A stretch of DNA of 49,509 nucleotides from assembly GCA_009103225.1 (NCBI GenBank), contig RHPI01002568.1:605729-655237 (forward strand), in the 5' to 3' direction. A program made the translations under genes and the position numbers. Below, one piece after another: positions 4,902-49,509 of the stretch; position 1 is the first letter of the stretch, and every line of letters starts with the position of its first letter. The stretch is from Chlorokybus atmophyticus. Taxonomy: Eukaryota; Plantae; Mesostigma and Chlorokybus algae. Below the pieces are notes generated by a model, which did not search any database, was not told where the DNA came from, and saw only the letters and a program-made list of their open reading frames with translations.

Positions 4902-5582
4902 TTGTTGCCCCTCGCCGTCCTCGATATAATGGTGTTGTTGCTGCCGCAGCAACCCGGCAATGTGCAAGAGCTATCTGCGGAGCAGAACTTCGACCTGCTG
5001 CAGCAGATGTACCTGTCGATGTCGACCAATGCGGGTCGAAATGTGTGCCACTACCTGAGCAAACATACTGGGTGGCAAGTAAAACCATTCGAGCTGTACT
5101 TGGCATGCTTTGGCTGGCAGTGGCTGTATGTCATACGGCACGTCGAGCTGATTCTGTGGAAGCTCGAAGAAAATGACAATGCGGGGGAGTACACGAGTAA
5201 CGACAGCCATGTCGAGGGCCTGGATGAACGCATGCTGGACGAGACCACCAAGACCAGCAGGTGGTGTATGGCGGCAGACGGGCAACAGGTGATCACGCAG
5301 GCAGTGGAGCGTTATGCTGCGCTATTCAGATGGGAGTCGCTACGCCTGCAACGCGATAACAGAGTTTGGTGGCAGAGGCAGCTTGCACACCCGCGTGCAC
5401 CATGTGTGCTGATTTGTCGCATTGAAGAGCCACCCCCCCCAGCGGATGGGGAGACGCCCTGTTGCAATAAAGCGATGTGCCATGTCTGCATCATAGCACA
5501 TCAGACGATTGTGGCAAATAAATTAAAGAATCTACAAGCGTGTCCATTCTGCAACCTCACCCTTTTTGGTCGCCACGCCTGA
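4902..5582 (+). CDS. Exon encoding a C-terminal RING-like zinc finger; element cargo
   Basis: CVLIC-x14-CCNKAMCHVC-x16-CPFC at the C-terminus; acceptor ccgcag at about 4929. Confidence 0.55.
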   Translation: MLPLAVLDIMVLLLPQQPGNVQELSAEQNFDLLQQMYLSMSTNAGRNVCHYLSKHTGWQVKPFELYLACFGWQWLYVIRHVELILWKLEENDNAGEYTSNDSHVEGLDERMLDETTKTSRWCMAADGQQVITQAVERYAALFRWESLRLQRDNRVWWQRQLAHPRAPCVLICRIEEPPPPADGETPCCNKAMCHVCIIAHQTIVANKLKNLQACPFCNLTLFGRHA

Positions 5583-5890: not shown

Positions 5891-6217
5891 AGTGGTAGCT
5901 ACCCCACCAGCACGCTGCTCGCACGCGGGCAAGGCAGTTGGACTGCTATCGCCGCATCGCCGCTGTCCGCTAGCGCGAAGAAGACAATCGTGACATCAAA
6001 CGCACCACAGCAGATGTACCCGGTCTATGGCCTTCCAAGCACCAGGGGCGGCATTGCTGCGTGGCAAACAGCGCTGAGAGTGCCATGGGTGACCTCGGCC
6101 GTTTCCATAGCGAATGCAGTTCCTCCCGCAATGGCGGAGTGCATAGGGCGTCTCATGCTTAAAACAATAGATATGCGATGTGACTACCCTCCTGTGTCAT
6201 GGAACTATGAGGCTTGA
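5891..6217 (+). pseudogene. C-terminal remnant of C5 cytosine DNA methyltransferase (copy A)
   Basis: WQTALRVPWVTSAVSIANAVPPAMAECIGRLML (motif X). Reverse complement of 48476-48797; upstream motifs deleted. Confidence 0.75.
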
Positions 6218-6420
6218 GTGTGGTGCACTGTATTGATGCTTAATACCACACGGGGGACTGATTGTTGAATGTTGCATGGCACATTCGATTGTGGTGACAG
6301 TTGTGCAGTGACAGCTGCCCGGTATTGTACACGTCCACATGCAAAAGTCTTAGCATACGATTAGCAATGCCTAACTGACTGATATGCTCCAAACTCAGAG
6401 TAGTGAGACAAGTACATGTG

Positions 6421-9400
6421 TCACGTGGAAGTGCAGTGAACGTTCACCCAATACTTGCCCTCTTGTACACGGGCGCTGTCCTTGTCAAACATGGGGAGCA
6501 GCTGGACAATGCCTTTTACTTGCTCCACAGTCACGACATCGAGATGTGGACCGCCTCAACGCTTTTCCCAGTCTAGAGCGATGCACTTTGTGTCGCTCGT
6601 CACATCCAACTTCGTGTACCAGCGGACAAACACGACCTCCTTCCACACGCGCTCGCCGCTACCACCCCACACCACCACGCGCAGAAAAAGGAGTGCCTGA
6701 GCCCACCACGTCACGTTCACACCGTCCTCATCACCTTCCAACTCAAGTGTAGAGAACCAAGGCCGCCCATGGAACATCCCAGTTGCGCGCGCCATGCTGA
6801 CTCCTGATGTCATGTACACCGCTGCGCCTCCGTTCACCACGCGAAAAGCACGCCACCCGTCGGCCAACTCCAGTTGTTCCCTCCTCAACCAGCTGTCCAG
6901 GCAGCTTGTCGGCGAATGGAGTCTTCAAGGCGACTTGGCGGCTACGCGCAGATCCGCTCCAGTACGAGCTGGACTCCCTCCTTGTCAGCACATCCATCCG
7001 TAGCAACTTGTCCGTCTTCTCCATGACATTACAGCACTGCTGCCGCGCCTGCGCCATGACCGAGCGCATCTCGGGATCCACGACCATGCCATCCTCTCTC
7101 ACATATTCCGCACAGCTCCATGCCTTCAGGATACGTGCCTGGTAGTCCCGGTTGTTGCCACCACGCGCCCACTGTTTGATATTTTGGGCGTGCATCTGCT
7201 CCATGTGGTTGGCGCTGAACCAATCTGGGTGTCCACTGCTGACAATTGCCGGCCCAAAATGAGTGAGCTGATGCATCTTCTCGATCTTCCAACCTGACTT
7301 CTGTGCAGAATATGACGACAGTAGCGGATGCAACACTGCAGCTTTGAAGGCAGCTAGCTCGTTAACGGCTGTGGTCAAGGTCTCTCTTGTGTGTTCATGC
7401 GCCTTGAGCAACTTCTTGTTCCACTGGGCAAGCGATGCGGCAGCAATGGTGAAGAAATCGTTGCCCTCACTGTCGAGCAGCAAACCGTTTGCGAGGACCG
7501 GCAGCAGCTGCAGCACCGCCACTTTCTCCACCACCTGAAAGGAGTGGTCGGACAGGAAGAAATCTACTGTGCTTGTGGGTGCCTTGAAGTGCGAAACTTG
7601 CAGAGTCGCCTTGCATGCATTCAGCCTGTGCACATCTGCTTGTGAGCACGTGTCGTTGCATTCTGTGTTCAAGACAAAAGCAACACGAAAGACGTGCCCG
7701 GCCTGCAGAATCTGTCTCGTGGATGGACGCATTCGTTCCTTCGCGGCGTCGTACACAGCAGCAAGCAGGTGGTTAATGATGCCTCCTAGCACATGCATTG
7801 CGTCAGGGGCAAGACGAGAGTAGCAGTCAGCTCCCGGCAAACGCGACTGTCGCCAACCCCACAGTGCATTCTGTTGCCAAAGCACATTGCCTGGTCTCAC
7901 GGAAAGCCATTCATCCTCACGAATGCCGATAATTTGACCATTACCTCCTCGACATGCATGGAGTGCTGCTCTTTGCAAGCCTTGGCTGCCTGGCGTGCAT
8001 TCCTAACACCGCTATGCAGGTCCGCCCGCAGCTGACGTAGTGCTGGTGTGTAGAAGGCCTCGGTTCTTAATTCCCGGTCCTCATCCATCTCTAACAGATC
8101 TGATTTGGTGACGAGACAAACATCGCAAGGATGTCGTGTTGGTTGCCCGACACAGTGCGTGCGAGTGTGGCAGTCTCCTACAACACGACAAACTCAGATG
8201 TTCAACTGACAACATCCTCCATGCACTGTTTGCTGGCAGGCTGCATCCGGTTACAACCATTCATGCCCACTACCTGCAAATCGCTGATGTAGTTGGCAAG
8301 CGCGGGAAACACACGACGCTCGATGCCATTCGGGTCGATGAGCTGCAGACCTTCCCAACTCGCCCGCTTCACATCCCCGAACACTACATTCAAAGCGTCA
8401 TGAAAAATCTCAAGTTTTCGAATGGACAACGATTCCTTGCCCTGCGCCCAGGTGGGATGCCCGGCCACTGCATGAACCACCGGCAGAAGCGCTATCATAA
8501 CAACCCCCATGTTGCTAGCATACATGTCCCAACTGTAGTTGGCAAGCGATGCCATCAGAGGGTAGCCAGAGCGCTTGCCCGCGCTGTTCAGCGTGGTCTT
8601 GTCACTGTACAGAATGGCAGGCGCCAAGTATGACGCTTCCCCCACCTCTCTCCTCAAATCCACCTCCACATCCTTCCACCAATCGCCCGTGGAAGGATGG
8701 CCAAAGCTGTGCTCGTCACTAGTGTACTGGAGATTGAAGCCATTGGCGGCATGTGGATTGCCATACAACCGCGCGAGCCATACCTGCTCCGACCAAGAGC
8801 ATTACTTACTATGCTGGCCTCAGAATAGATACTGCATCGATACTGCATTAGGTACTGCATTTCACAGACCTTGGCCGGCATATATGTGACGCAGATGTCC
8901 TGATCCTCAGGGTCTCCAGGCTTGCGCAGGTCAGCCGTCACGTAGTTCTGATACGGCAGCACACTCGCATGTGCATATGTGACATGGCTCTGATGGTTGA
9001 AGCACATGCACCGCACACCGTGAACACACCTCAGACTGAGAGAAAGCAATCGTGGTCCGGAGGTAGCTGGCCGCATGCACACCGGTCTCCCACTGGAGCT
9101 CTTCCGTCAGGAAGTGTGCATTTCGGATGCACTTGATGATCCGCCCCATGTCGGAGGCCGACAGGCCTTGGCCGTTGTTGCACTGCACGAATGCCACTGC
9201 AAGAGCATGCTCCGAGCCATACCACCTGGATTCCGACGCGTGCGAAGGGACGCCTCCACTTCCATGTTGGCGTGCCACAGGTTTCTCAGGCACACGCACA
9301 CATCGAAAGCCCTCGTTCACTTCCTCCTCCTCCTGTTGCTGCTGTGCGTGTGTCTCCTGGAGGAATCCTTCAGCATCAAGCATGTGAGCATCCTGGATCG

Positions 9401-9554
9401 AACTCCCCGGTTCAACATGACCCGCATCGTACTGTAATGGACGCTGGCCGACATACAGCTTGATCTGCTTGCACACCCTGCTGCTAATAATGTGCATGTA
9501 GACCGAGCTGCGTGTGGCGAAGCGCATGTGGCAATACGGACAAAGGACTCCCAT
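6421..9554 (-). pseudogene. Plavaka transposase, copy A (spliced, frameshifted)
   Basis: HPSTGDWW, AILYSDKT, GYPLMASLAN, FHDAL, GIERRVFPALANYISD, PDAMH, KMHQLTH, MEQMH, RATGMFHGRPWFS. Relative to copy B there is a 1-nt deletion at about 8139 and an 8-nt deletion at about 6898. Confidence 0.9.
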
Positions 9555-9679
9555 ATCTCACTACTAACGTCGACACAGGTGTCGCCAATGTAACCTGCAT
9601 CATATCCAGCAACACGCACACCCGCCGCCGCCGCCGCCACCGCCACCGCCACCGCTACCGCTACCGCTGCATGCCAGAG

Positions 9680-9905
9680 GCGGGAAACTTGGCCGCCAGT
9701 CACTGGCTCCGTCGTACCATTATAATGGTACGATCGAGCCATTGCACGTCCAGGGTGAGTCTCTGGATATTTTTATATACATATATATTCTGATTGAACC
9801 GTTTCAATGGTACGAAGATGCCTTTGCCAAAAGGTATAGGCATTGTACAAAGGTACCATTGAAATGGTACCTTTGTACAATGGCAATGGCAGTTCGTACC
9901 ATTGA
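9680..9905. promoter_or_regulatory. Element promoter hub 1 (between divergent transposase and gene W), copy A
   Basis: Exact TCGTACCAT/ATGGTACGA at 9712, 9725, 9807, 9894; 22-bp palindrome 9712-9733; hairpin 9841-9882 (20-bp arms); GCGGGAAA near 9680. Confidence 0.55.
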
Positions 9906-10919
9906 CAACTCTGGCAATGTCAGTCCCCCTGCGCATGAAAACACCATTGATAGCTCCGCCAAGCTATGCCCTTACAGGGGCGTGATGCCGAGGGTATGTG
10001 GCGTTTGGAAGATCGTTGGCGGCGCTGCCAGGGGCGTAGTGGGCATTGTGGTCGAGGTCCGGGATGAATTCCATGTTCGCACAGGGCGGGCAGGGTGCCG
10101 GAGGGGTGTCCTCGGTGTCAAACCCCACCAAGACTACCAAGGGCACATCCAATGACAACAGTGACTCGGGCGATATCTTACAGGGCTCCCCCTCCGAGTG
10201 GGCAAAGGCACACCACAATACTGCCTCTAAGAAAATCCGACCCACCAGCAGCTGCGACCACGGCGACATGATTGAAGGGACCAAACAAGACTGGCATAAC
10301 CAAGGTGGGTTACGATGCACTGTCAATGCCACATGCTAGGGTTCTTTTATCTTGCACATGCACAGCCTCAAGTATCTTGCACTTGACATACATTGTCAAT
10401 ACGACATGCACACCCTCATGCACAACCTCCAGTGTCATGCACATGAACAGCATGACCAATCTCGCAAATGCACAGCCTATTTCTACTTGCGGGAGCTCAC
10501 AAGTCGCAAAAGAGAAGCTGCGGAGTCAAACGAACGGGTAATCTATGACCTAGTTTAATGTTTCCAGCGGTAATTAAGCAGTATGCTTGCAGATTGCCAT
10601 GTTGGTCAGAGTGAACCAAGAGCAGCGCGGCAGGCTGACTGTCTGCCTGGCGGAGTGCAACAAAGCGGAAGACGAGGTAAGCGTGTGTATGCTGATGGGC
10701 TAGTCCTCTGGCAGCACGCCACTCTTACAGCATTACCAAATGCAGGTGGTCACTCTCAAAGCGACCATCAAGCGCATGCGCGTGCACGGCGAGGCGCTGA
10801 CATTCAAGCTGAAGGACGAAGTAGCCGCTGTACTGTCAGCGAGCGAGGCAGCGGATGAAGATGACTCCGGCGTTGAAGCAGAAGACTCGTCGGAGGAGGA
10901 ACAGGAGGAGGGGGTTTGA
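9880..10919 (+). CDS. Element gene W: spliced protein of unknown function with an acidic C-terminal tail (copy A)
   Basis: Exons ...LKYLALDIHCQYDMH...ESNER|IAMLVRVNQEQ...KAEDE|HYQMQVVTLKATIKRM...DEDDSGVEAEDSSEEEQEEGV*; present in copies A, B, C. The 5' exon model is tentative. Confidence 0.55.
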
Positions 10920-11404
10920 GGAGGAGTTTTTGGGCAGGCACCACGGGTTGACAAGCTACGCATGAGTCCGACAGCTAGACTCAATGTTATAGGATAGTTT
11001 CATGCGCAAGTCGGCTGCTCAGTTGTGAGTGGACATACTCTCACCACTGCCCGTACATTGTATATATTGTGGGCTTTTAGGTGCAAGACCAAACAATCAG
11101 TCCAAGGTTTGTACAAGCTGCATGGCATGTTGGTGTTGGCTTACGGCAAGAATTGCCAACTTTTGTCAAATGGCAAGGGTCACATATTAACAGCAGTGTA
11201 ACGGCAAAGAAACTGCACGTTCTTGATGCACTGTGCACGTTGCTTCTTGCTCAGCTTCTAACTTGGATGCTTGCTTCTATCATGACTAGCACAGTGACTC
11301 ACTGCATGCGTTCTGGATACACTGTGCACGTTGTTCTTCTTTTGCAACTGCGAGGGTTGCATCTTTCATGGCTGGCAGAATGACTCATGTGGTTGTGCTT
11401 GCAG

Positions 11405-12861
11405 AGGGTCGATTGGAACCCCAAACCCAAACGCATTTGGCCGTGACCGGGCAACCTCGGCCGTCAGCAACCCTTCCCCAAGCAAGTGGAAGATTGGCAA
11501 CGAGGTAAGCACTGTGTGACACTGTGACACTGTGTGTATGTGTGTAACGGATTGTTCTTCTGTGGACAGCATTTGCGAGATGCCGTCGTTGAAATCATAA
11601 ACGGCCACTGGGTAGAGAGCCACGTTTATCCCAAGGAGGACACTATTCGTAACGTCATGTGTCAGGTGCTGTGAATGCTTCATGACCGCACTGCACCGTG
11701 ACACTGACCAACCTGCCCGTGACAGGTAGTTGGCTTCGACCATGACGACGAGGCCGATGCGGCCAAGTTCTATGAGGTGTACTGGACTCCCAAGGAGTGC
11801 CCCTTCCACTGGAGTGTCGCCCTGAAGAAAGCTACGCAGGTCCGGTCTGAGAACGTCACCAAGATCAAGCATGTCCTTGAGAAGGAGTACAAGTGGACAC
11901 TGTTTAACAGCAACAAGCGCAAGTGAGTTGGGTCCCTCACCACCACGTCTGCTATGCAACACTGCCTTTTTACTCAGCCTCCATACACACGTACTCATCT
12001 CGCCTATTGTAACCGATTCAATCAGGCACATCGACGCCCTAATGGACCCCGAGACCCAAAAAGCCCAGATGCGCAACGCGCTCCAAAGTAAGTCACAGGC
12101 ACTATTCTAGCCTGGTGCAGGCTCAACTTGAACTATCTATTTCGTGACTAATGCCTTGTCGGTATGACTGTCGCAGACAAGTCATGGCGGAGATTTGAGG
12201 TGACCGACACTGCAGACCCGGAGCGGAGGAGATACATCCATGAATGGGGCAATCCCATAATCTGGCAAATGATCGTGCAATGCTGGTCTTACGCCGTCAC
12301 TACACCTGGTCGCCGGCAGCTGACAGTCAACCACCTCGCATACCTGTTGCTTACGGTGAGCACTCTGAACTCCATCATTAGCAATTCAGGAACGCTGTAG
12401 CCCCAAACTACAGGCTTGCAGACGCGTTGCAGTGAATAGTGGCTTTCGATGCCACTAAGACATGCCTGTAAACTACGCAGGTGGAGCGCATCCTAAAGGG
12501 CAAGGATGGAGACCCTCTCCTAGCTGCCAGCATAGACACACATGAAGAGTACCTCAGCGAAATCAACACCATGATCATGTCAATGAAGCGGGAGATGAGG
12601 CAACGGTACGCAGCCCTCCAGCCATTCACCCTTGTGAAACGCCGCACTGCATCTTGTGTCGAATACCTGAAAGATCCCAATCGGCGCCGGCCGCAAGAGA
12701 CAGCAGCTCGTGACCCGCTCGCTGAGGCAGAAGCGGCATTTGATTGGCTGGCACAACCGTTTGAGGAGGAAGAGCAAGCTCCGGCGTCTCCTCCACAGGC
12801 CCCAGCGCGTGGTGCTTTGTTCCGTAATGACGAGACCAGCGATGATGGAGAGGAGCTGTAG
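11405..12861 (+). CDS. Element gene X, last six exons (unknown accessory protein, acidic tail)
   Basis: Phase-consistent GT-AG exons: GSIG..IGNE|HLRDAVVEII..MCQ|VVGFDH..NKRN|LHTH..ALQN|KSWRRF..YLLLT|VERILKG..DETSDDGEEL*. No internal stops. Confidence 0.7.
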
Positions 12862-13241
12862 CGCAGTTGGTAGTCCGTTTAGCTGGTAGTGTACATAGCT
12901 ACAAGGCTCTTGTGACTGAGTGTTGTGCATCTTAAACCAGCTCAGTCAATCGTCATTATGCTCATGCACATCAATACTTGCATCCCTATGATATACAACA
13001 GAACTGCATTCGAGTCACATAATCGAACCACAAGCCTTGGCAAGTGACTGAGAGACACTGTACACATTTCAGGTACATGTACACAGCACGGGCACATAAC
13101 AATGCTGGAAGTCAGTGACAGTCGCGTGTAGTCAAGCTATGCAAATACATATGACGACAGTTAGGCATTGGTCACCTTCAGTTGTTGAAGAATGCCTTAT
13201 TTTGACGAAAATTACCTAGTTGGTGCTTGTGAATTAGGCTT

Positions 13242-13524
13242 AGTCGCCTGCGCTGGACTGGTGTGTAACCTGAAGGTGCCTGTCACATAGGCTGAGTCAC
13301 CTAGGTAAGACTGATGTGTAAGTTACAGGTGCCCGTTGATTAGTTGTAGTCACCTAATAAGGCCTGATGTGTAACTAACAGTTGCCTGTAAATTACAGAA
13401 AGTCATTTGTTAAGGCCTGGTGTGTGACTAACAGGTGCCTGCTTATTTTATGAAGTCACCTAATAGAGCCTGATGGGTAACTAACAGGCGCCTGTTAGTT
13501 AGGCAAAGTCAACTGTTAAAGACT
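13242..13524 (+). repeat. 53-bp subterminal tandem repeat, 5 units plus a partial unit
   Basis: Units start AGTC at 13242, 13295, 13348, 13401, 13454, 13507; consensus about AGTCACCTAATAAGGCCTGATGTGTAACTAACAGGTGCCTGT... Confidence 0.85.
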
Positions 13525-13681
13525 TAATTATAACAGAAAGGGCCTTACAGTAACGAAAGTTACTGTTAGGTCCCTGTATCAAGATTACAGGTGGCCTAAG
13601 CCACGACAGTCTAAATTAGCGTCCTCAGGTGCACGGCCGTTGCCAATATTTAGTCGGCCGGCAGGGAAAACATATTGCCAA

Positions 13682-14037
13682 GTTGGCGTGCCACAGGTTG
13701 CTCAGGCACACGCACACATCGAAAGCCCTCGTTCACTTCCTCCTCCTCCTGTTGCTGCTGTGCTTGTGTCTCCTGGAGGAATCCTTCAGCATCAAGCATG
13801 TGCGCATCCTGGATCGAACTCCCCGGTTCAACATGACCCGCATTGTACTGTAATGGACGCTGGCCGACATACAGCTTGATCTGCTTGCACACCCTGCTGC
13901 TAATAATGTGCATGTAGACCGAGCTGCGTGTGGCGAAGCGCATGTGGCAATACGGACAAAGAACTCCCATATCTCACTACTAACGTCGACACAGGTGTCG
14001 CCAATGTAACCAGCATCATATCCAGCAACACGCACAC

Positions 14038-14069
<32 letters not shown>

Positions 14070-15955
14070 GCCACCGCTACCGCTACCCTTGCATGCCAGA
14101 GGCGGGAAACTTGGCCGCCAGTCACTGGCTCCGTCGTACCATTATAATGGTACGATCGAGCCATTGCACGTCCAGGGTGAGTCTCTGGATATTTTTATAT
14201 ACATATATATTCTGATTGAACCGTTTCAATGGTACGAAGATGCCTTTGCCAAAAGGTATAGGCATTGTACAAAGGTACCATTGAAATGGTACCTTTGTAC
14301 AATGGCAATGGCAGTTCGTACCATTGACAACTCTGGCAATGTCAGTCCCCCTGCGCATGAAAACACCATTGATAGCTCCGCCAAGCTATGCCCTTACAGG
14401 GGCGCGATGCCGAGGGTATGTGGCGTTTGGAGGATCGTTGGCGGCGCTGCCAGAAGCGTAGTGGGCATTGTGGTCGAGGTCCGGGATGAATTCCATGTTC
14501 GCACAGGGCGGGCAGGGTGCCGGAGGGGTGTCCTCGGTGTCAAACCCCACCATGCCTACCAAGGGCACAGCCAATGACAACAGTGACTCGGGCGATATCT
14601 TACAGGGCTCCCCCTCCGAGTGGGCAAAGGCACACCACAATACTGCCTCTAAGAAAATCCGACCCACCAGCAGCTGCGACCACGGCGACATGATTGAAGG
14701 GANTCTGCCTCTAAGAAAATCCAACCCACCAGCAGCTGCAACCACGGCGACATGATTGAAGGGACCAAACAAGACTGGCATAACCAAGGTGGGTTACGAT
14801 GCACTGTCAATGCCACATGCTAGGGTTCTTTTATCTTGCACATGCACAGCCTCAAGTATCTTGCACTTGACATACATTGTCAATACGACATGCACACCCT
14901 CATGCACAACCTCCAGTGTCATGCACATGAACAGCATGACCAATCTCGCAAATGCACAGCCTATTTCTACTTGCGGGAGCTCACAAGTTGCAAAAGAGAN
15001 ATTACCACGAACGGGTAATCCATGACCTAGTTTAATGTTTTCAACGGTAATTAAGCAGTATGCTTGCAGATTGCCATGTTAGTCAGAGTGAACCGAGAGC
15101 AGCGCGGCAGGCTGACTGTCTGCCTGGCGCAGTGCAACAAAGCGGAAGACGAGGTAAGCATGTGTATGCTGATGGGCTAGTCCTCAGTTATCGTAACGCC
15201 ACTCTTACAGCATTACCAAATGCAAGTGGTCACTCTTAAAGCGACCATCAAGCGCATGCGCGTGCACGGCGAGGCGCTGACATTCAAGCTGAAGGACAAG
15301 TGGGCGCGGTTCTGTCAGCGAGCGAGGCAGCGGATGAAGATGACTCCGGCGTTGAAGCAGAAGACTTGTCGGAGGAGGAACAGGAGGAGGGGGTTTGAGG
15401 AGGAGTTCTGAGGCAGGCACCACGGGTTGACAAGTTGCGCATGAGTCCGACAGCTAGACTCAATGTTATAGGGTAGTTTCATGCGCGAGTTGGCTGCTCA
15501 GTTGCAAGTGGACATACTCTCACCACTGCCGGTACACTGTATATATTGTGGGCTTATAGGTGCAAGACCAAACAATCAGTACAAGGTTTGTACAAGCTGC
15601 ATAGCATGTTAGTGTTGGCTTACGGCAAGAATTGCCAACTTTTGTCAAACGGCAAGGGTCACATATTAACAGCAGTGTAACGGCAAAGAGACTGCCGGCT
15701 ATTGCTGTCAGCTGTCCGTAACCGGTTAACGGCCGTCTGTGCACATCGACCAAAGGGTAAATGGTTGACAACTCTTGGCCGGTTAGTGCCACTGACAACC
15801 ACTTTCGGCCCGCGGCCGTCTGCGTCAGTCCATTTAAGCCAACGGCAAACCCAACAGTCCACAAGTAATATTTCAGGCAGCGACAGGCAGGCTCAGGCAG
15901 GCTCAGGCACCAGTCAGTCCCTCAGTCCTTAGTCAGTCACCGTGTAAAATTTGCG
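13682..15955 (-). mobile_element. Plavaka element copy C: left-end fragment (left terminus, gene W, hub 1, transposase N-terminus)
   Basis: Reverse complement of 43200-45419 and direct repeat of 9262-11216. Ends ...GTGTAAAATTTGCG at 15955. Visibly more diverged than A and B are from each other. Confidence 0.85.
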
Positions 15956-32113: not shown

Positions 32114-34759
32114 TCATGGCTGCTGTTCTGATGCCGCTGACTTCATGAGAGCAGCGTACTCCTCATCGGTGGGCGCAAGCTGCACCGCATCAAACTTGTC
32201 CTCCTCATAGAACGTAGCCTTGACGACCCTTCCGCCAAAGAAGCGGCCGTCCAAGTCGACAAGCGCCTTCGTGGCCTCCTCCGCCCTTGAAAACTTCACG
32301 TAGATACGGACGGCTTCCGTTGCGGGATAATTGGGGTCTGTCACCTGTGGAATAACACAACAGAGTGACATAACAATTTTTTGCAGCTTGTGCGTTGCAA
32401 CCACATGATGGTGATGAGGTTGTGCACAATACTTCATGGTGTACCTCAAAGATGAGAACTCTGACCACGGTCCCGTATTTGGTGCACTCTTCAGCCACTT
32501 CACCCTCCAAGTCATCATCAACCTCTCCTGGGCCAACCTTCAAACAAGCACACACAACCCTTGGCATCAGTCAGCACAAACACACACCTGTGCAAACTGC
32601 GCGACGTCACTCGGGCTCTCGCTAGTTGAAGTATGCACTTGCATGTACACACGTTCATCTAAACAGTTAATGGGTATGCTGTCACACACACGCACACGCC
32701 CGCTCGCATGCGCAGTCACACACACCGCACTCACCATGTTGCGCAGGAGCAGCACAACAGTGGGCGGCATGTTGAACGTGACGCCGCCAACCTTTGGTTT
32801 CTTGGCAGAGGGAGGTGGAGGGCCAGGTAGAGGGGCGGCATTGACAATTACGCCGGACCGCCCAGCCGTTTTCTGATGCTGCAAAGGCGTCGCCATCCCC
32901 TGCCTGTTCTTGCCCAAACCCTCCCCATGCTGCCAACCCATCTTCTGCATCATCCGCTCTGCCATTGTCAACTGCACATACAGTTTGTGTAAGCTCACTT
33001 TGCATTGCAAGTATGACCAGTTGTGTGAGTAGCCACAGCAGTAGATTTGATGTGTTCACATGTCATGAGAGTCATCACACTTGGTACTTATGTGATGACA
33101 CATATGACGGCGCAACCACAACCACACACGACATGCCTTTGGCTCGCCATTGGATGCATCTGCACTCGGGCCCCTTTCGGCCCTTCCAGGTGTTGAGTCT
33201 TGCACGGGCGGGGGACTGGGCGAGCGGGGCGGAGGTGCTCGGCCGCTCAGCATGGCGCGGCGTTTCCATGCCTCCTCGCCACTTATGTTCAAGCTGCCAA
33301 CGGAAGAGTCATGCTGGTCACCCATCAAACAACATCATTCCAACATGCCAATGCACAGCTGATAGCTGTAGTAGCACCAGATATGCAATCGAGGACACTC
33401 TGAAAGATGCGCATGCGTGCTCGCACACACATACACACACACACAGCATAAGCCAAACCTTGCTCTACTGGGTTCTCTCTCTTCATCCCGCTTTTCTCGC
33501 ATGCGCTCCAACTCGCGCTCCATCTGTTCATGTCGCCTTCTCTCCTCTTCTCTTTGTCTGCCAACAGCAAACATGTATACACGCAATCCCATACACGACC
33601 AAGTCACTATTCTCGATTGCATTGCAAGCAGTAAGCAACTCACCTCCGCCCTTCCTGCTCTGCTTTTCGTCTGATAGCTCGCTCTCGGCAGTGCGCTTCA
33701 TAATCGTTGGGTCTGGCAGGATCATACTCGTCTTCTATCCGTTCACGCGCGGCCACAAGCGTCGCCGGCCGGTGATCAACTCCAGCATTGCGCGCAGCTG
33801 GAGTTGACTCATGCACTGCTGCTGTTGGTGTGCTGTGAACACGCAGAAGGCTAGTTGATGTTCTGCTGTTTACAATATATCATGTTCAAGGTGACAACTG
33901 TGCGGCTTAGTTGAAACGCGCACACCCCCGACGCGTGCAGACGCTCACCCACACACCCGCACATCCACACACTGACATGCGCTTGTGAGCATGCGCAAGT
34001 GCAAGTACCCACGCACCCACGCACGCACGCGCACACAGACAGCAGTACCTTGCTGCGGGCGTAACAGCGCTCTCTTTCTTGAGTATGCCCTTTACGGGAA
34101 TGCGAGGCCGTGGGGAGTTTGCGTTTAGTAGCTGCTGTGCGCGCAAGACTGCGGGCGGTGGCAGAAAGGAAGCTTTGCGCGGTGCCAATAGCTTTGACAC
34201 GCCTGCTGACCTGTTAGCCGCAAGTGACAATGAGCGTTTCGACAAAAATTATGTAACACATTGTTGTTTTCGTATACCCAAAAACAAAAGAATAGATTCA
34301 ACATGTACCACCGTTGGCTTGGCATACAAAAGTCAATGGCATGCTAGCACTATGACGGTCGAACGATCCGATCTTTTGCCCATAATAGTGATCTGGGTGT
34401 GCAATGCATTTTGCAACGACAACACCAACACCAACAACAACGACCAAACGACACAACCATGCAAGATGGAGGAGCGTTGCAGACTGCTTCACAAGCAGTG
34501 CCACACCTATGCGCTCAAGCAAAAGTTGGACAGCCAGCTTGCAGCTATGTTGTTGCTGATATGAATGGTAGAAAGCACTGGTGACATGCAATGGGCACAG
34601 CAAGCACTGCGACCACAAACAGCGTACAGCATGGTTCGAACCGCACCATCCTGCAGTCTTCTTGTCATCGGTGGCAGCGTCGGTGGCCGCAGCCGCAGCC
34701 GCCGCAGCAGTCTCTGCCGCTGACGGGGGCGGCAGATCGCCGTAGAGTCCCCCAAACAT
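32114..34759 (-). CDS. SPF45: Splicing factor 45 / DRT111 homologue (G-patch plus UHM)
   Basis: MFGGLYGDLPPP N-terminus; G-patch MAERMMQKMGWQHGEGLGKNRQG; UHM LLRNMV|GPGEVDDDLEGEVAEECTKYG...DGRFFGGRVVKATFY. Confidence 0.92.
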
Positions 34760-35198: not shown

Positions 35199-37980
<2,782 letters not shown>

Positions 37981-40274: not shown

Positions 40275-40374
40275 GCAGACATACGGTGTCAGTAGTGCAC
40301 TCTATGTTTAGGGGCAAATGCCTGGTCGAAAGTCATGAGATGTGTTTAGGGGGATTCTGGAGAATGGAAGCAGC
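40275..40374 (+). pseudogene. Degenerate duplicate of one dapL exon (37632-37731)
   Basis: Ungapped 100-nt alignment; 19 mismatches by hand count. Confidence 0.8.
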
Positions 40375-41902
40375 AGTTCTCAAGTCCCACCTACCACAAC
40401 ATAACAACATGATTACAGTCTTGCTCATCTGATGTGGCCACACCACAAACACACAGATCGTCTTGTGGCGTCACGCACAAGTTGTGTTGCGCTGAGTGTA
40501 ACACTTCAAGTTCTTACCAATTGTTGTCTCACTTACTTTACGAGCATGCTGTTGGTTAGCTTGGCTGACTCATGCACAAGCATCAAGACCTTATTGCACA
40601 TGATGGAAGGAAGTCCCTCCAGCTGCACCGGTGCACTGCTGAGCACCTTGCAAAGGAAGGCACAACACCGCACATAAGAAGGAGAGGACGACGACAAGCC
40701 CCTTCAGCTCCCAGCAAGGAGAGGATGATCACCAGCCCCTCCACTCAGCTCCCAGCCCTGGCATAGAACCACACCGTGTGGCGTGACGCACATATACGAT
40801 CGATAGTGCAGCTGCACACAATCGGCCATGTGGGCATTCAAATGCTTGCCAAAACGCTGACATCATGATGCCTAACGGGGAGGTCGCTAGTGGTCACATC
40901 TACTCTAGTACCATCTGATTAAGTAGAGAATAGCAGTGGATGGCACTCGTTTGGTGGTTGTGTATGTGATGATGTTGTGATGTACTATGAGTGAGTGCTT
41001 ATGTGAATGTCATGCATACGCGATTGTACGACACCACACTTATTCTGTACACACAGCTTCATACCCCACACGGGATGGGAGAGGGCTGTCATGCCTATCG
41101 CCCATGCATGCCAGTCGTCATCGGGCATGCCTACAGCGAGACCATCGCCCGGCTTACCATCATGGCAACCCGCGCGCGTCTCTGACCAGTAGCTAGGTCA
41201 TGTCTCTAGAGTAGCTCATGACCATAGCCTACATAGGCACCGCGCGTAGCTGTTCAGTTGTGACTTCAGTTATAAGTCAGGTTCTATATCGAGTGGGAAT
41301 TTCCTGGGGAAATAGCCTTAATATGACCATTAGCTTATGTTCTGGACAGTCATGAGTTGACTTGTATAAGTAAGCACAGTGTTCACCAGATCAGCTGGTG
41401 ACACTGTAAGTGAGAAAGCTAAGAGCTTGTGAAGCGACTTGAACTACGAAACACACCGTCCCGGTTCCCAAGAATCCCCTCACCGTGTGAGAGCCTGTGC
41501 ATGTTCTTGTGCACTGTGCTTGTCCTTGCTGTGAGCTTTGTGTACTTGGTCGCGGTGTGCTTGTTGGCATCAGTTAGGGCATAGCATCCACGTGTTGCTT
41601 GCTCATTCACCTCACTTAACAGTGCAATTTCTCTTCCACTCACGCAAAGAACTGTGTAAACAGCACTACCTATAGTAGTAGCTTGTTGACTTACAGTGTC
41701 ACCCTTTTTGCTCAAGTGAGTGTAGTTGCAGGCTGTACATCAGCATCGCAATCTGTAGTTGTACACATCACAGTGCAGTGTTGTCACCGTCATCGCATAG
41801 CGCGCACAAGCGCTAGTGTGTTGGGTGATAGCAGCACTGGAGATTCCATTGTAGAGCACAAACACTCTACCCTTCATCCACTTTCACCATCGCATCAGCT
41901 GT

Positions 41903-43199
41903 ATGAGCAGGCCCACCCCTTTCTCGCCAATAGAAGAAGGGGACCTCAACAGCTGGAGCCCAACCTCCAACCTTACCTACGAGCGCGCAAGTGAAGGGAG
42001 CAATTACCGTAGCAGCAGAGGCGCACGCCCCGTCTCCGGCTTCACCTCCTCTCACTCCACTCCTCGCCAACGAGCATCTCCACCACCGTCGGACAGTGAC
42101 GACGAAGAGATGGAGCCTTCCAGCTCAACCAACTCCCTACGCTTCTCCGGACGCCCTGGCACCACCTCACTTGACGAGTTCATCATCAAGTTCCACTCCA
42201 AGATGCGGCAGCAAGCCCTCAAGAGCAAGGACTGGACAGATGAGGTATCGTTTCATGTGTCCGCTCAATACCTTGATCACGAAGCACATGATGTGTGGAA
42301 GTCCGTCGCTGAGTTGCACAAGAGTGATGGCTATGGCGAGTTGGTCAGCACGATAGCCGCCACGTCACTGCACAGCCCATCGGTTACTGTCCCTGTAGCA
42401 GCGGCCCCGCCCGCCTCAGTCACGGGTCTCACTCTAGCTGCAGCCATGGAGAAGGCAGAGAATGGAGAAGTTGAGGTGGTAGTGGCCTCATTGACTCCTG
42501 CAGAGATCGAAAGCAAGAAGGCCGAGCGCCGGATCAGGATACTCAACCGCACCGCTGCCATCATCAGGGAGCAACAAGAGGAGCAGCAAGCTGCAGCATT
42601 GGAGATGGGTACACCCCTGCTACCAACACCGAACTCGCGTGCTCCAGCGGGAGGTTGTGTTTTCACCCTCGGTTCAGTGGCATTGCGTGCACCTGCGCTT
42701 ACGGTGGGCGCGGCCATGTCGGACTCCCCGTTGAAAGACCTCTACGCCGCACTCCGGCGCACCTTCCCACCTCAAATCAACAGCAAGGTGGAGGAGTTGA
42801 GGCGTTTTCGACGGAAGCCCCACGAGGACCCTCTCCGACTGTATTCACGGTTGGAAGGGTTGCTTAAAGACACTGACTACAAGATTGTCAGTGAGGAGGC
42901 GGCAGCAGTGGTGTATGTGGCCGAGTTGGATCCCACCCTGAGTGAGTCAACGCGCCTGACGCTGAATTACAGCAGGCCCCTCGGCTACACCCTCAAGGAA
43001 GCTTTCGACACTGCACAAGCCATCCATAAGCGTGCAGTGTATGAGAAAGCGGTGCTGGATACCAACCGCAGTGCCTCACGGCCTATGGCAGGCACAAGTG
43101 CAGAGCCTCTTCGGCGGGACCGCAGCCGAGAGCCGCAAGGCATCCACTACAAGGATATACGGTCAGCTCATGCTGCCCTTGTGGCTCCAGTGCTGTCGT
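41903..43199 (+). mobile_element. Retrotransposon Gag-like ORF (Ty3/Gypsy- or DIRS-type capsid), interrupted by Plavaka copy B
   Basis: Intronless; FSGRPGTTSLDEFIIKF, QYLDHEAHDVW, LYAALRRTF, EELRRFRRKPHEDPLRLYSRLEGL (MHR-like), TLKEAFDTA. The last codons of the called ORF come from the element terminus. Confidence 0.7.
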
Positions 43200-43759
43200 C
43201 GCAAATTTTACACGGTGACTGATTAAGGACTGAGGGACTGACTGGTGCCTGAGCCTGCCTGAGCATGCCTGTTGCTGCCTGAAATATTACTTTTGGACTG
43301 TTGGGTTTGCCGTTGGCTTAAGTGGACTGACGCAGACGGCCGCGGGCCGAAAGTGGTTGTCAGTGGCACTAACCGGCCGAGAGTTGTCAACCAGTTACCC
43401 TTTGGTTGATGTGCACAGACGGCCGTTGACCGGTAGTTACGGACAGCTGACAGCAATAGCCGGCAGTTTCTTTGCCGTTACACTGCTGTTAATATGTGAC
43501 CCTTGCCATTTGACAAAAGTTGGCAATTCTTGCCGTAAGCCAACACTAACATGCCATGCAGCTTGTACAAACCTTGGACTGATTGTTTGGTCTTGCACCT
43601 AAAAGCCCACAATATATACAATGTACGGGCAGTGGTGAGAGTATGTCCACTTACAACTGAGCAGCCGACTTGCGCATGAAACTATCCTATAACATTGAGT
43701 CTAGCTGTCGGACTCATGCGCAGCTTGTCAACCCGTGGTGCCTGCCTCAGAACTCCTCC

Positions 43760-44799
43760 TCAAACCCCCTCCTCCTGTTCCTCCTCCGACGAGTCTTCTG
43801 CTTCAACGCCGGAGTCATCTTCATCCGCTGCCTCGCTCGCTGACATTACAGCGGCTACTTCGTCCTTCAGCTTGAATGTCAGCGCCTCGCCGTGCACGCG
43901 CATGCGCTTGATGGTCGCTTTGAGAGTGACCACCTGCATTTGGTAATGCTGTAAGAGTGGCGTGCTGCCAGAGGACTAGCCCATCAGCATACACACGCTT
44001 ACCTCGTCTTCCGCTTTGTTGCACTCCGCCAGGCAGACAGTCAGCCTGCCGCGCTGCTCTTGGTTCACTCTGACCAACATGGCAATCTGCAAGCATACTG
44101 CTTAACTACCGCTGGAAACATTAAACTAGGTCATAGATTACCCGTTCGTTTGACTCCGTAGCTTCTCTTTTGCGACTTGTGAGCTCCCGCAAGTAGAAAT
44201 AGGCTGTGCATTTGCGAGATTGGTCATGCTGTTCATGTGCATGACACTGGAGGTTGTGCATGAGGGTGTGCATGTCGTATTGACAATGTATGTCAAGTGC
44301 AAGATACTTGAGGCTGTGCATGTGCAAGATAAAAGAACCCTAGCATGTGGCATTGACAGTGCATCGTAACCCACCTTGGTTATGCCAGTCTTGTTTGGTC
44401 CCTTCAATCATGTCGCCGTGGTCGCAGCTGCTGGTGGGTCGGATTTTCTTAGAGGCAGTATTGTGGTGTGCCTTTGCCCACTCGGAGGGGGAGCCCTGTA
44501 AGATATCGCCCGAGTCACTGTTGTCATTGGATGTGCCCTTGGTAGTCTTGGTGGGGTTTGACACCGAGGACACCCCTCCGGCACCCTGCCCGCCCTGTGC
44601 GAACATGGAATTCATCCCGGACCTCGACCACAATGCCCACTACGCCCCTGGCAGCGCCGCCAACGATCTTCCAAACGCCACATACCCTCGGCATCACGCC
44701 CCTGTAAGGGCATAGCTTGGCGGAGCTATCAATGGTGTTTTCATGCGCAGGGGGACTGACATTGCCAGAGTTGTCAATGGTACGAACTGCCATTGCCAT
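43760..44799 (-). CDS. Element gene W, copy B
   Basis: Reverse complement of 9880-10919, same length. Confidence 0.55.
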
Positions 44800-45000
44800 T
44801 GTACAAAGGTACCATTTCAATGGTACCTTTGTATAATGCCTATACCTTGGGGCAAAGGCATCTTCGTACCATTGAAACGGTTCAATCAGAATATATATGT
44901 ATATATATATATATCCAGACTCACCCTGGACGTTCAATGGCTCGATCGTACCATTATAATGGTACGACGGAGCCAGTGACTGGCGGCCAAGTTTCCCGCC
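44775..45000. promoter_or_regulatory. Promoter hub 1, copy B
   Basis: 9-mer sites at 44777, 44864, 44946, 44959; hairpin 44797-44838 (one mismatch); TTTCCCGC at 44992. Confidence 0.55.
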
Positions 45001-45130
45001 TCTGGCATGCAAGGGTAGCGGTAGCGGTGGCGGTGGCGGTGGCGGCGGCGGCGGCGGCGGCGGGTGTGCGTGTTGCTGGATATGATGCAGGTTACATTGG
45101 CGACACCTGTGTCGACGTTAGTAGTGAGAT

Positions 45131-48100
45131 ATGGGAGTCCTTTGTCCGTATTGCCACATGCGCTTCGCCACACGCAGCTCGGTCTACATGCACATTATTA
45201 GCAGCAGGGTGTGCAAGCAGATCAAGCTGTATGTCGGCCAGCGTCCATTACAGTACGATGCGGGTCATGTTGAACCGGGGAGTTCGATCCAGGATGCTCA
45301 CATGCTTGATGCTGAAGGATTCCTCCAGGAGACACACGCACAGCAGCAACAGGAGGAGGAGGAAGTGAACGAGGGCTTTCGATGTGTGCGTGTGCCTGAG
45401 AAACCTGTGGCACGCCAACATGGAAGTGGAGGCGTCCCTTCGCACGCGTCGGAATCCAGGTGGTATGGCTCGGAGCATGCTCTTGCAGTGGCATTCGTGC
45501 AGTGCAACAACGGCCAAGGCCTGTCGGCCTCCGACATGGGGCGGATCATCAAGTGCATCCGAAATGCACACTTCCTGACGGAAGACCTCCAGTGGGAGAC
45601 CGGTGTGCATGCGGCCAGCTACCTCCGGACCACGATTGCTTTCTCTCAGTCTGAGGTGTGTTCACGGTGTGCGGTGCATGTGCTTCAACCATCAGAGCCA
45701 TGTCACATATGCACATGCGAGTGTGCTGCCGTATCAGAACTACGTGACGGCTGACCTGCGCAAGCCTGGAGACCCTGAGGATCAGGACATCTGCGTCACA
45801 TATATGCCGGCCAAGGTCTGTGAAATGCAGTACCTAATGCAGTATCGATGCAGTATCTATTCTGAGGCCAGCATAGTAAGTAATGCTCTTGGTCGGAGCA
45901 GGTATGGCTCGCGCGGTTGTATGGCAATCCACATGCCGCCAATGGCTTCAATCTCCAGTACACTGGTGACGAGCACAGCTTTGGCCATCCTTCCACGGGC
46001 GATTGGTGGAAGGATGTGGAGGTGGATTTGAGGAGAGAGGTGGGGGAAGCGTCCTACTTGGCGCCTGCCATTCTGTACAGTGACAAGACCACGCTGGACA
46101 GCGCGGGCAAGCGCTCTGGCTACCCTCTGATGGCATCGCTTGCCAACTACAGTTGGGACATGTATGCTAGCAACATGGGGGTTGTTATGATAGCGCTTCT
46201 GCCGGTGGTTCACGCAGTGGCCGGGCATCCCACCTGGGCGCAGGGCAAGGAATCGTTCTCCATTCGGAAACGTGAGATTTTTCATGACGCTTTGAATGTA
46301 GTGTTAGGGGATGTGAAGCGGGCGAGTTGGGAAGGTCTGCAGCTCATCGACCCGAATGGCATCGAGCGTCGTGTGTTTCCCGCGCTTGCCAACTACATCA
46401 GCGATTTGCAGGTAGTGGGCATGAATGGTTGTAACCGGATGCAGCCCGCCAGCAAACAGTGCATGGAGGATGTTGTCAGTAGAACATCTGAGTTTGTCGT
46501 GTTGTAGGAGACTGCCACACTCGCACGCACTGTGTCGGGCAACCAAACACGACATCCTTGCGATGTTTGTCTCGTCACCAAATCAGATCTGTTGGAGATG
46601 GATGAGGACCGGGAATTGAGAACCGAGGCCTTCTACACACCAGCAATACGTCAGCTGCGGGCGGACCTGCATAGCGGTGTTAGGAATGCACGCCAGACAG
46701 CCAAGGCTTTCAAAGAGCAGCACTCCATGCATGTCGAGGAGGTAATGGTCAAATTACCGGCATTCGTGAGGATGAATGGCTTTCCGTGAAACCAGGCAAT
46801 GTGGTTTGGCAACAGAATGCACTGTGGGGTTGGCGACAGTCGCGGGTGCCGGGAGCTGACTGCTACTCTCGTCTTGCCCCTGACGCAATGCATGTGCTGG
46901 GAGGCATCATTGACCACCTGCTTGCTGCTGTGTACGACGCCGCGAAAGAACGAATGCGTCCATCCACGAGACAGATTCTGCAGGCCAGGCACGTCTTTGG
47001 TGTTGCTTTTGTGTTGAACACAAAAGCCAACAACACGTGCTCACGAGCAGATGTGCACAGGCTGAATGCATGCAAGGCGACTCTGCGGGTTTCGCACTTC
47101 AAGGCACCCACAAGCACAGTAGATTTCTTCCTGTCCGACCACTCCTTTCAGGTGGTGGAGAAAGTGGCGGTGCTGCAGCTGCTGCCGGTCCTCGCAGACG
47201 GTTTGCTGCTCGACAGTGAGGGCAACGATTTCTTCACCATTGCTGCCGCATCGCTTGCCCAGTGGAACAAGAAGTTGCTGAAGGCGCATGAACACACAAG
47301 AGAGACCCTGACCACAGCCGACAACGAGCTGGCTGCCTTCAAAGCTGCAGTGTTGCATCCGCTACTGTCGTCATATTCTGCACAGAAGTCAGGTTGGAAG
47401 ATCGAGAAAATGCATCAGCTCACTCATTTTGGGCCGGCAATTGTCAGCAGTGGACACCCAGATTGGTTCAGCGCCAACCGCATGGAGCAGACGCACGCCC
47501 AAAATATCAAACGGTGGGCGCGTGGTGGCAACAACCGGGACTACCAGGCACGTATCCTGAAGGCATGGAGCTGTGCGGAATATGTGAGAGAGGATGGCAT
47601 GGTCGTGGATCCCGAGATGCGCTCGGTCATGGCGCAGGCGCGACAGCAGTGCGGTAATGTCATGAAAAAGACGGACAAGTTGCTACGGATGGATGTGCTG
47701 ACAAGGAGGGAGTCCAGCCCGTACTGGAGCGGATCTGCGCGTAGCCGCCAAGTCGCCTTGAAGACTTTATTTGCCAACAAGCTGCCTGCCACCCTGGTCA
47801 GCTGGTTGAGGAGGGAACAACTGGAGTTGGCCGACGGGTGGCGTGCTGTTCGCGTGGTGAACGGAGGCGCAGCGGTGTACATGACATCAGGAGTCAGCAT
47901 GGCGCGCGCAACTGGGATGTTCCATGGGCGGCCTTGGTTCCTACACTTGAGTTTGAAGGTGATGAGGACGGTGTGAACGTGACGTGGTGGGCTCAGGCAC
48001 TCCTTTTTCTGCGCGTGGTGGTGTGGGGTGGTAGCGGCGAGCGCGTGTGGAAGGAGGTCGTGTTTGTCCGCTGGTACACGAAGCTGGATGTGACGAGCGA

Positions 48101-48272
48101 CACAAAGTGCATCGCTCTGGAATGGGAAAAGCGTCGAGGCGGTCCACATCTCGATGTCGTGACTCTGGAGCAAGTAAAAGGCATTGTCCAGCTGCTCCCC
48201 ACGTTTGACAAGGACAGCGCCCGTGTACAAGAGGGCAAGTATTGGATGAACGTTCACTGCACTTCCACGTGA
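45131..48272 (+). pseudogene. Plavaka transposase, copy B (N-terminal C2HC zinc finger; 1-nt frameshift at about 47940)
   Basis: Exons 45131-45655, 45738-45815, 45902-46411, 46508-46741, 46816-end (one more intron possible); CPYC-x12-H-x5-C; full set of Plavaka motifs including YISDLQE..CDVC. Confidence 0.9.
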
Positions 48273-48475
48273 CACATGTACTTGTCTCACTACTCTGAGT
48301 TTGGAGCATATCAGTCAGTTAGGCATTGCTAATCGTATGCTAAGACTTTTGCATGTGGACGTGTACAATACCGGGCAGCTGTCACTGCACAACTGTCACC
48401 ACAATCGAATGTGCCATGCAACATTCAACAATCAGTCCGCCGTGTGGCATTAAGCATCAATACAGTGCACCACAC

Positions 48476-49049
48476 TCAAGCCTCATAGTTCCATGACACA
48501 GGAGGGTAGTCACAGCGCATATCCATTGTTTCAAGCATGAGACGCCCTATGCACTCCGCCATTGCGGGAGGAACTGCATTCGCTATGGAAACGGCCGAGG
48601 TCATCCATGGCACTCCCAGCGCTGTTTGCCACGCAGCAATGCCGCCCCTGGTGCTTGGAAGGCCATAGACCGGGTACATCTGCTGTGGCGCGTTTGATGT
48701 CACGATTGTCTTCTTCGCGCTAGCGGACAGGTGCGGCGATAGCAGTCCAACTGCCTTGCCCGCGTGCGAGCAGCGTGCTGGTGGGGTAGCTACCACTGGT
48801 TGTATCTCAAACAGACGGTGTCGGAAAGTTGATAGGCCAAACATTGTGCCACAAAGGGACAGATTGGGTCTGAATGAGGAAGCTGCTCCTGGCACATTTT
48901 ATCACAAACTTGACCTGGCTTGCAAGCAGCAGACGTCGGACGAGCGGTATCATATCCTGGTGTCTCCAGGATGTGCCATGTGCCGCCCGTTGAGGTGCCG
49001 GGATAGCACCTGAATAGGCCTGGCATGGTGGACTGGCCCAGAAGAGCTC
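48476..49049 (-). pseudogene. Intronless phage/bacterial-type C5 cytosine DNA methyltransferase (motifs IV-X; motif I deleted; 2-nt deletion at ENV)
   Basis: ELFWASPPCQAYS (IV); KFVI[E]NVPGA (VI, broken by ATAAAATGTG in place of ATAGAAAATGTG); LCGTMFGLSTFRHRLFE (VIII); IANAVPPAMAECIG (X). Confidence 0.85.
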
Positions 49050-49509
49050 GGTGCAGAAGCCACATCGGTTGTTGCATTGTGCTGTGGTCTCGCCGGTGGC
49101 GGCAAGAAGGATTGTTGCCCCGCAATCACCGGTGCTGCTCGTGGAGGAGATGGCAGTGCACGAAGGACTGGTGCCGCGGAAGGTGGTTGCGCTCTGGCTG
49201 GGAGGGGAGCAGGAGCTGCAGGTGAGACCACTTGTGCATGCAGCAAGGGGGGCTGTATACAGGACCCAGGAGAGAGTAAGATGGCTCACAATGTTGCAAA
49301 GGACGAATATAAGCTTATGCAGTGCCTGATGCATTGTTACCAAGGCACGAGCATAAAAGACAGCGACTTACCTCGATGGCCCGTGGGCTGCATGGAGCAG
49401 GGGAAGCCATGGGGGCTGACAAGATGGTATTGGCTGCACTCTCCCCGCCACCCTCGATGGCAGACTCGTCACGGAGCTCTTGAGCCATGGGCACATCATG
49501 CGCCACTGC
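49050..49509 (-). pseudogene. 5' exons of the OTU gene in copy B, fused out of frame to the MTase by deletion
   Basis: Reverse complement of 2647-3101; similarity ends at GCTTCTGCACC. Confidence 0.8.

Follow-up and report, generated by a model that had tools for sequence, protein, structure and literature searches.

A decayed C5 DNA methyltransferase carried by a Plavaka DNA transposon in Chlorokybus atmophyticus, with kin among green-algal and giant-virus enzymes

Several retrotransposons of algae are known to carry DNA methyltransferases (SymbioLINE-Dnmt, SymbioDIRS-Dnmt3, and KnitGypsy-Dnmt3) (PMC5890265), and LTR elements with C5 enzymes have been described as EpiLTRs (10.64898/2026.05.21.726589). 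Self-methylation has been proposed for these retrotransposon enzymes, with de novo CG activity demonstrated for some (PMC5890265; 10.64898/2026.05.21.726589). Among DDE transposons, Mariner-1_OLpv has a C5 methylase domain and is linked to giant viruses of algae (PMC3627910). Transposons of the Plavaka lineage are described, in the available text of the sources, with other epigenetic cargo: fungal Plavaka carry TET/JBP (PMC12730594), and red-algal Plavaka include PAG2, with an N6-adenine methylase plus SET, and PAG3 (10.1101/2025.02.11.637652). Plavaka giant repeats are described in Amoebidium (PMC11244446), and Plavaka is also present in chlorophytes (PMC13519894). A separate set of "orphan" eukaryotic DNMTs, sporadic and likely virus-derived, is described from algal and protist genomes (PMC12344493). 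C5 enzymes on mobile elements and epigenetic Plavaka cargo are thus both known, and we found no report of their combination in the literature searched. That search, with Repbase Reports, subscription journals, and supplements outside it, returned no C5 methyltransferase on a nuclear Plavaka or CACTA element.

We analyzed a stretch of 49,509 nucleotides of C. atmophyticus DNA (the window). An earlier note made from its sequence had placed a methyltransferase inside a eukaryotic DNA transposon, and this was borne out: The gene travels with a Plavaka DDE transposase in a repeated unit, of which three copies (denoted A, B, and C) lie within 49.5 kb. The main features are as follows.

3026-4048, plus strand: OTU-like protease frame of 341 codons, kept in copy A and deleted in copy B, with an Atlas match
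4902-5579, plus strand: RING-like frame of 226 codons that closes with a cysteine cluster; in copy A it precedes the methyltransferase
5891-11216, minus strand: copy A, inverted, 97.9% identical to 48797-43463; transposase and C-terminal third of the methyltransferase
13678-15955, minus strand: copy C, partial, with the left part and the 5' end of the transposase only; stops at an N
43200-45127, no strand assigned: left part of the repeated unit, common to copies A and C
45128-48272, plus strand: Plavaka (CMCT/EnSpm-related) transposase (PF18759, 82.4 bits against a cut-off of 26.3)
48476-49049, minus strand: remnant of a C5 DNA methyltransferase, motifs IV-X, recognized by homologues; reading frame broken at about 48899-48900 and N-terminus lost
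49050, no strand assigned: deletion junction of copy B; the right side leads to the OTU-like region in copy A and in four sequencing runs, and the left side continues in frame upstream in runs X1-X3
49050-49509, minus strand: unit sequence equal to copy A 2647-3101 (97.2%), continuing beyond the window end

The transposase gene of copy B has four GT-AG introns (45656-45737, 45816-45901, 46412-46507, and 46742-46815) and, once spliced, gives 825 codons without a stop, in which the D, CxxC, D, HxxxH, and E motifs are present; DDE, C(2)C, and H(3-4)H motifs define the Plavaka transposase (PMC12730594). Relative to copy A it has lost 1 nt at 47941. The earlier statement that every other gene of the element is spliced holds for the transposase and fails for the two uninterrupted frames (341 and 226 codons) of copy A. 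In copy B, the methyltransferase remnant and the transposase are arranged tail to tail. The two genes are common to copies A and B at 97.9% identity over 5341 nt; the C-terminal third of the methyltransferase lies at 5891-6213 on the plus strand in copy A, with a 5-nt insertion. The deletions of the two copies differ, as copy A has lost the gene up to motif VIII and retains 2.8 kb that are missing in B. Read together, the copies lead us to infer a full element with the transposase first, followed by facing OTU-like, RING-like, and methyltransferase genes.

Plavaka termini are TGT..ACA or CATCA..TGATG repeats with a 2-3 bp target duplication. Within the window we found no terminal inverted repeat, no sequence matching the left boundary in inverted orientation, and no target-site duplication, in a search limited by the right end of B lying beyond the window and by the rearrangement of copy A. 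In each of the three copies, short palindromic or tandem repeats sit just 5' of the transposase (44774-44826, 9853-9905, and 14275-14327). At the left boundary of the unit, the last 20 bases of an uninterrupted 455-codon frame (41855-43222, plus strand), retrotransposon gag-like by eye and without a Pfam match, overlap the unit. A spliced-looking gene is also repeated, as inverted copies of 96.6% identity at window positions 1-1033 and 11212-13677; it meets copy A at a 5-nt microhomology and is followed by 53-bp tandem repeats (13255-13511). Three of its frames had no match in Pfam, and it possibly forms the other extremity of the large element to which copy A belongs. Host genes in the window include those for a G-patch plus RRM protein and an LL-diaminopimelate aminotransferase (32117-33055, minus strand; 36786-37157, plus strand). 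These nearby genes are spliced and eukaryotic, with an aminotransferase exon match at E 9e-21 that, taken with the style of the introns, suggests a green-algal host. A 100-bp repeat of 81% identity joins 37632-37731 and 40275-40374.

The methyltransferase motifs quoted in the earlier note are all on the minus strand, between 49040 and 48479. One frame (49049-48900) holds ELFWASPPC, with WASPPC at 49040-49023 and SPPC at 49034-49023, and a second frame (48898-48479) holds NVPG, LCGTMFGL..RHRLFE, and ALGVPWMT..ANAVPP. The remnant thus has the Pro-Cys nucleophile (SPPC) of motif IV of C5 methyltransferases (PF00145), and its RHR (motif VIII RxR) and AVPP (motifs IX-X) align with invariant columns; the numbers IV-X follow the C5 methyltransferase scheme. 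Taken singly, the pieces on the two sides of the frame break (the N and C pieces) had no match in Pfam, and in PHROGs the N piece had only weak matches (E 0.035). When 120 homologues were searched with tblastn, all 120 reached the C piece and 108 the N piece. The C piece matches 861 proteins of 77-245 aa, and its best matches among them, taken alone, are compact enzymes at 38%-43% identity. It also matches 246 of 50,697 phage records (best E 1e-16; 33%-40% identity), and nearly all of the 30 phage matches listed are annotated as DNA methyltransferase. We assign the remnant to the C5 methyltransferases on the strength of these homologues.

A structure model of the C half (pLDDT 85.5) had a Pithovirus C5 methylase as its best BFVD match (E 1.3e-3), and the same model alone had no match in the PDB at E<=0.001. 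The model of one relative, P0244 (pLDDT 64.7), matches M.HaeIII (E 7.5e-5) and is 12%-20% identical to DNMT1/3 structures. None of the canonical families (DNMT1/CMT/DNMT3/DRM/DNMT5/ChloroDNMT) is named among the listed matches of the homologue searches. Four invariant cysteines and histidines of the C piece (C16, H27, C43, and H45) may be metal ligands.

We compared the window with four public runs (X1-X4) from two studies. Three of them (X1, X2, and X3, representing two samples and both studies) cover the gene; X4 covers only 49050 onward and so leaves out the site of the frame break. The earlier note had supposed a gap of 2 nt near 48900, and X1, X2, and X3 each carry two extra bases at 48898-48900 that bring motif VI (ENV) back into frame. 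All four runs part from the window at 49050, where the right-hand contigs run into sequence equal to window 3102 onward, and the left-hand contigs of X1-X3 keep the methyltransferase frame open for the further 30 bases that were read. Because every run breaks at this position and the contigs continue differently on each side, copy B has lost its N-terminus by deletion. About 60 N-terminal codons are gone, including the expected place of motif I (FxGxG, SAM binding), which is present in full-length relatives. The description of the gene as intronless therefore stands for motifs IV-X (574 nt) and does not reach the deleted N-terminal codons. With this deletion and a frameshift that disrupts motif VI, copy B is dead. 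In the main X1-X3 contigs, the gene reads without interruption as far as it is covered and keeps its catalytic residues. Undeleted copies probably keep an intact N-terminus with motif I; the homologue searches and the representative search returned no protein from such a copy.

The notion that the gene is contamination or a chimeric join has some features on its side, as it is prokaryote-like and lacks introns, and the window has N gaps and a frameshift that is missing from the runs. It is refuted by the linkage to the transposase, which is seen in the two window copies and independently in an X1 contig of 2521 nt that spans 48203-49050 into the end of the spliced transposase and extends beyond both ends (781 nt upstream). 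The gene is moreover equally present in three runs of two studies, and its composition (GC 0.56, CpG o/e 0.70) and dinucleotide bias match host DNA. We regard an assembly artifact as hardly credible.

Another question is whether the gene is a functionless passenger, swept up with flanking DNA and decaying, in a region where the repeats are local duplications and rearrangements. Each of the two window copies is broken, and not by the same deletion; no termini were found in the window, and among the minor copies in the runs there is a stop codon as well as a 37-nt skip. Against this, the gene reads through in the main contigs of both studies, which retain the catalytic residues, and X2 and X3 contain many low-depth variant contigs beside one dominant type, as expected from a dispersed family. 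Differences among the copies were synonymous at eight of 13 variable sites (31.8% expected; P = 0.026, on sites that were filtered and are not independent), a weak sign that the gene may be maintained. A mere passenger is, on balance, rather unlikely. The contexts of transitions between copies A and B showed no clear target signature (CA 18, CG 15, CC 14, CT 11).

In a search of longer proteins, P0121, which has an MBD (PF01429), and P0122 ranked above all compact matches. A profile search then added about 45 proteins (260-490 aa) that carry extra sequence between motifs VIII and IX. They form two groups. The first has an MBD as its insert (PDB MBD2 E 1.2e-9; fold matches). In the second, denoted INS, the insert aligns with that of the MBD group by profile yet has no MBD match. 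The window protein, joined across the frame break with an X (the read-through), scored 128-165 bits against the best MBD-group proteins and 105 against the best single compact enzyme, and by profile it scored 205 bits for MBD, 194 for INS, and 131 for compact enzymes. The window protein has the motifs of the clade, namely a linker after motif IV, MYPVYG, RG...W, and a DYxP tail. All five diagnostic motifs are found in it; each occurs in nine to 13 of 13 MBD rows and in one to five of 334 short proteins, where two exceptions are truncated MBD-group members.

A tree of 47 rows (the window, 13 MBD, 13 INS, and 20 compact proteins, hand-chosen from about 510 proteins and 211 loci) groups the window with MBD and INS at 97/94 and with MBD alone at 85/91. 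"Compact" here is a matter of length, with the origin known for few rows, and canonical DNMTs stood outside all trees. The phylogeny favors a place for the gene with the insert-bearing clade over one with the compact clade. The window branch is long (1.36), and in a quick tree of 89 rows the window came out at a polytomy, where the support separating the compact group was only 78. The MBD is absent between motifs VIII and IX both in the window and in the X1 contig, which crosses the place without a joint, so the window protein is kin of the MBD group and not itself an MBD enzyme. The window lineage likely shed its MBD, a loss that we put no higher because a placement outside MBD+INS was not rejected (p 0.229). 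Our literature search, with the same kinds of source outside it, returned no MBD-fused giant-virus methyltransferase and no MBD-insert clade.

These results bear on the earlier proposal that a phage or bacterium was the direct donor. The 246 phage records, the compact, insert-free window protein, and a segment after motif VIII like that of compact enzymes such as P0003 all speak for it. The joining of the window with a compact clade of nine rows was rejected (p-AU 0.023), however, and the five diagnostic motifs are nearly absent from the 334 short proteins. A wider pattern for the clade had 27 matches in 185,579 prokaryote genomes, none of them real. Direct capture is therefore quite improbable, and the label "phage/bacterial-type" suits the compact family, which is mostly phage and bacterial, but not the closest relatives, which are insert-bearing enzymes from green algae and from a giant virus. 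The family itself arose earlier from compact phage or bacterial enzymes; in the tree, such enzymes lie all around the clade.

Compact C5 enzymes with an MBD insert (P0121, P0241-P0244, P0251, P0254, P0260, P0357, P0361, and P0496) are possibly minimal reader-writers, and P0295 has an additional N-terminal zf-CW domain. P0124, P0257, P0259, and P0359 are proteins of ~450 aa; P0124 consists of two compact C5 methyltransferases in tandem, and the other three score similarly. In the Atlas, whose clusters have at least 50 members, P0244 falls only near phage and bacterial clusters.

The named MBD-group members are proteins of Klebsormidium nitens (GAQ92615.1) and Chromochloris zofingiensis (Chrzof1/11496). 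In Klebsormidium, one model (the P0496/P0494 cluster) shows a duplicated methyltransferase C half and a neighbor annotated elsewhere as HIT hydrolase; this fusion is likely a gene-model join. INS members occur on a giant-virus MAG contig of IMG/VR (GVMAG; L161) and on L191, whose unspliced genes look giant-virus-like. The wider pattern had two matches in viral contigs (one real) and 22 in metagenome contigs (four real, all INS, one being the same contig as L161), and the narrow MBD-group pattern had none in either. Three further viral scans gave no clade member beyond the one viral contig matching the clade pattern, and scans with P0121, A4, A5, P0270, and P0246 gave compact enzymes only, or nothing.

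The neighbors in copy A suggest a similar setting. A RING gene lies directly 5' of the methyltransferase in both long INS loci examined (L161 and L191), and the cysteine pattern of the RING-like frame, which had no Pfam match, aligns with these genes; L191 also has an OTU-like gene 1.8 kb from the methyltransferase (weak, E 7e-4). The first Atlas match of the OTU-like frame (0.94) is an OTU cluster with PF02338 on 34% of its members, whose recorded taxa are all viruses, most commonly Nucleocytoviricota, a lead only; the frame matched the PDB weakly (E 0.12) and had no Pfam match. Together, the two genes of copy A recall the giant-virus neighborhoods of INS methyltransferases. RING and OTU genes are common and also known as transposon cargo. 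Between the two frames, 4300-4830 holds a palindrome (4306-4369) and a broken, helix-turn-helix-looking frame without a Pfam match. None of 24 window frames searched against Pfam matched a giant-virus hallmark (capsid, polymerase, or packaging ATPase).

As the closest relatives are green-algal and giant-virus enzymes and not phage enzymes, the transposon likely took the gene from a giant virus, a route to which we give fairly good odds. The cargo could instead come from an older MBD-insert family of green-algal nuclear genomes or mobile elements, with no giant virus as direct donor. The only named MBD-group members are indeed two green-algal genome proteins, the giant-virus contig belongs to INS, the sister group, and Plavaka are described as carrying varied accessory genes (10.1101/2025.02.11.637652). 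However, the Chromochloris gene bears an unplaced-scaffold name, the contig with the Klebsormidium protein is no longer than 17.1 kb, and the remaining MBD-group members were called as single-frame genes on short contigs. The OTU-like neighbor, again as a lead only, points to Nucleocytoviricota. We consider an algal donor unlikely, if the least so of the alternatives.

Our favored reading, which we hold to be probable, is that the broken C5 methyltransferase is Plavaka cargo, likely acquired from a giant virus, or an endogenous copy of one, along with the OTU-like and RING-like genes, and that intact copies are predicted to methylate cytosines. Judged by itself, activity of intact copies on cytosine has a fairly good chance. 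An intact copy would bind SAM through its N-terminus and flip the cytosine; the motif IV Cys would then attack C6, aided by the motif VI Glu and the motif VIII Arg, which is the established chemistry of the C5 family. A recognition region of ~35 residues without an MBD would likely give a short or loose target, and the DNA methylated would most likely be the element's own or that of the insertion site. That the element gains by marking its own ends or new insertions is a tentative idea, and the earlier note's suggestion that the enzyme might alter host silencing is likewise conjectural. Equally tentative is the fullest version of the account, in which Plavaka captured OTU, RING, and methyltransferase genes as one block from a giant virus and now spreads a predicted working 5mC writer in a green-algal genome, with an enzyme from an undescribed clade with an MBD in the recognition region that has since shed it.

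If true, 5mC writers carried by transposons, known from retroelements, would be found on nuclear DNA transposons too, and the Plavaka cargo set, which has erasers and adenine and histone writers, would be completed by a cytosine writer. The locus would also offer a traceable route for orphan eukaryotic DNMTs, from a phage-type family to giant virus, transposon, and algal genome. An enzyme of ~300 aa in which an MBD replaces most of the recognition domain would be a simple natural reader-writer and a candidate for the spreading of methylation.

Compared with known systems, the locus resembles the retrotransposon DNMTs in having an intronless C5 methyltransferase (here motifs IV-X) on an algal mobile element. 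The retrotransposon enzymes are of the DNMT3, orphan, or DNMT4-sister type and sit mostly inside pol, whereas the gene described here is free-standing, of a compact family, and on a DDE DNA transposon. Mariner-1_OLpv, likened by description only, is likewise a DDE transposon with a C5 methylase, but it is a Mariner in a virus genome and its enzyme is paired with an endonuclease. The compact actinophage and bacterial enzymes (e.g., Gordonia phage Yakult gene 45) have the ~220-aa plan, SPPC, ENV, LCG.MF, RHR.FE, AIPP, and very short recognition region of the window protein, but lack its longer linker after motif IV, its MYPVYG/RG...W segment, and its DYxP tail. Orphan DNMTs are described as generally without companion domains, and the available text of that source mentions neither an MBD-insert clade nor carriage by transposons (PMC12344493). 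The cargo-bearing Plavaka, as far as the available descriptions go, come closest in sharing the transposase lineage, large size, and accessory genes acting on DNA or chromatin; their known cargo consists of PF01555/SET, 2OG oxygenases, or tyrosine recombinases, whereas that of the window is a C5 methyltransferase.
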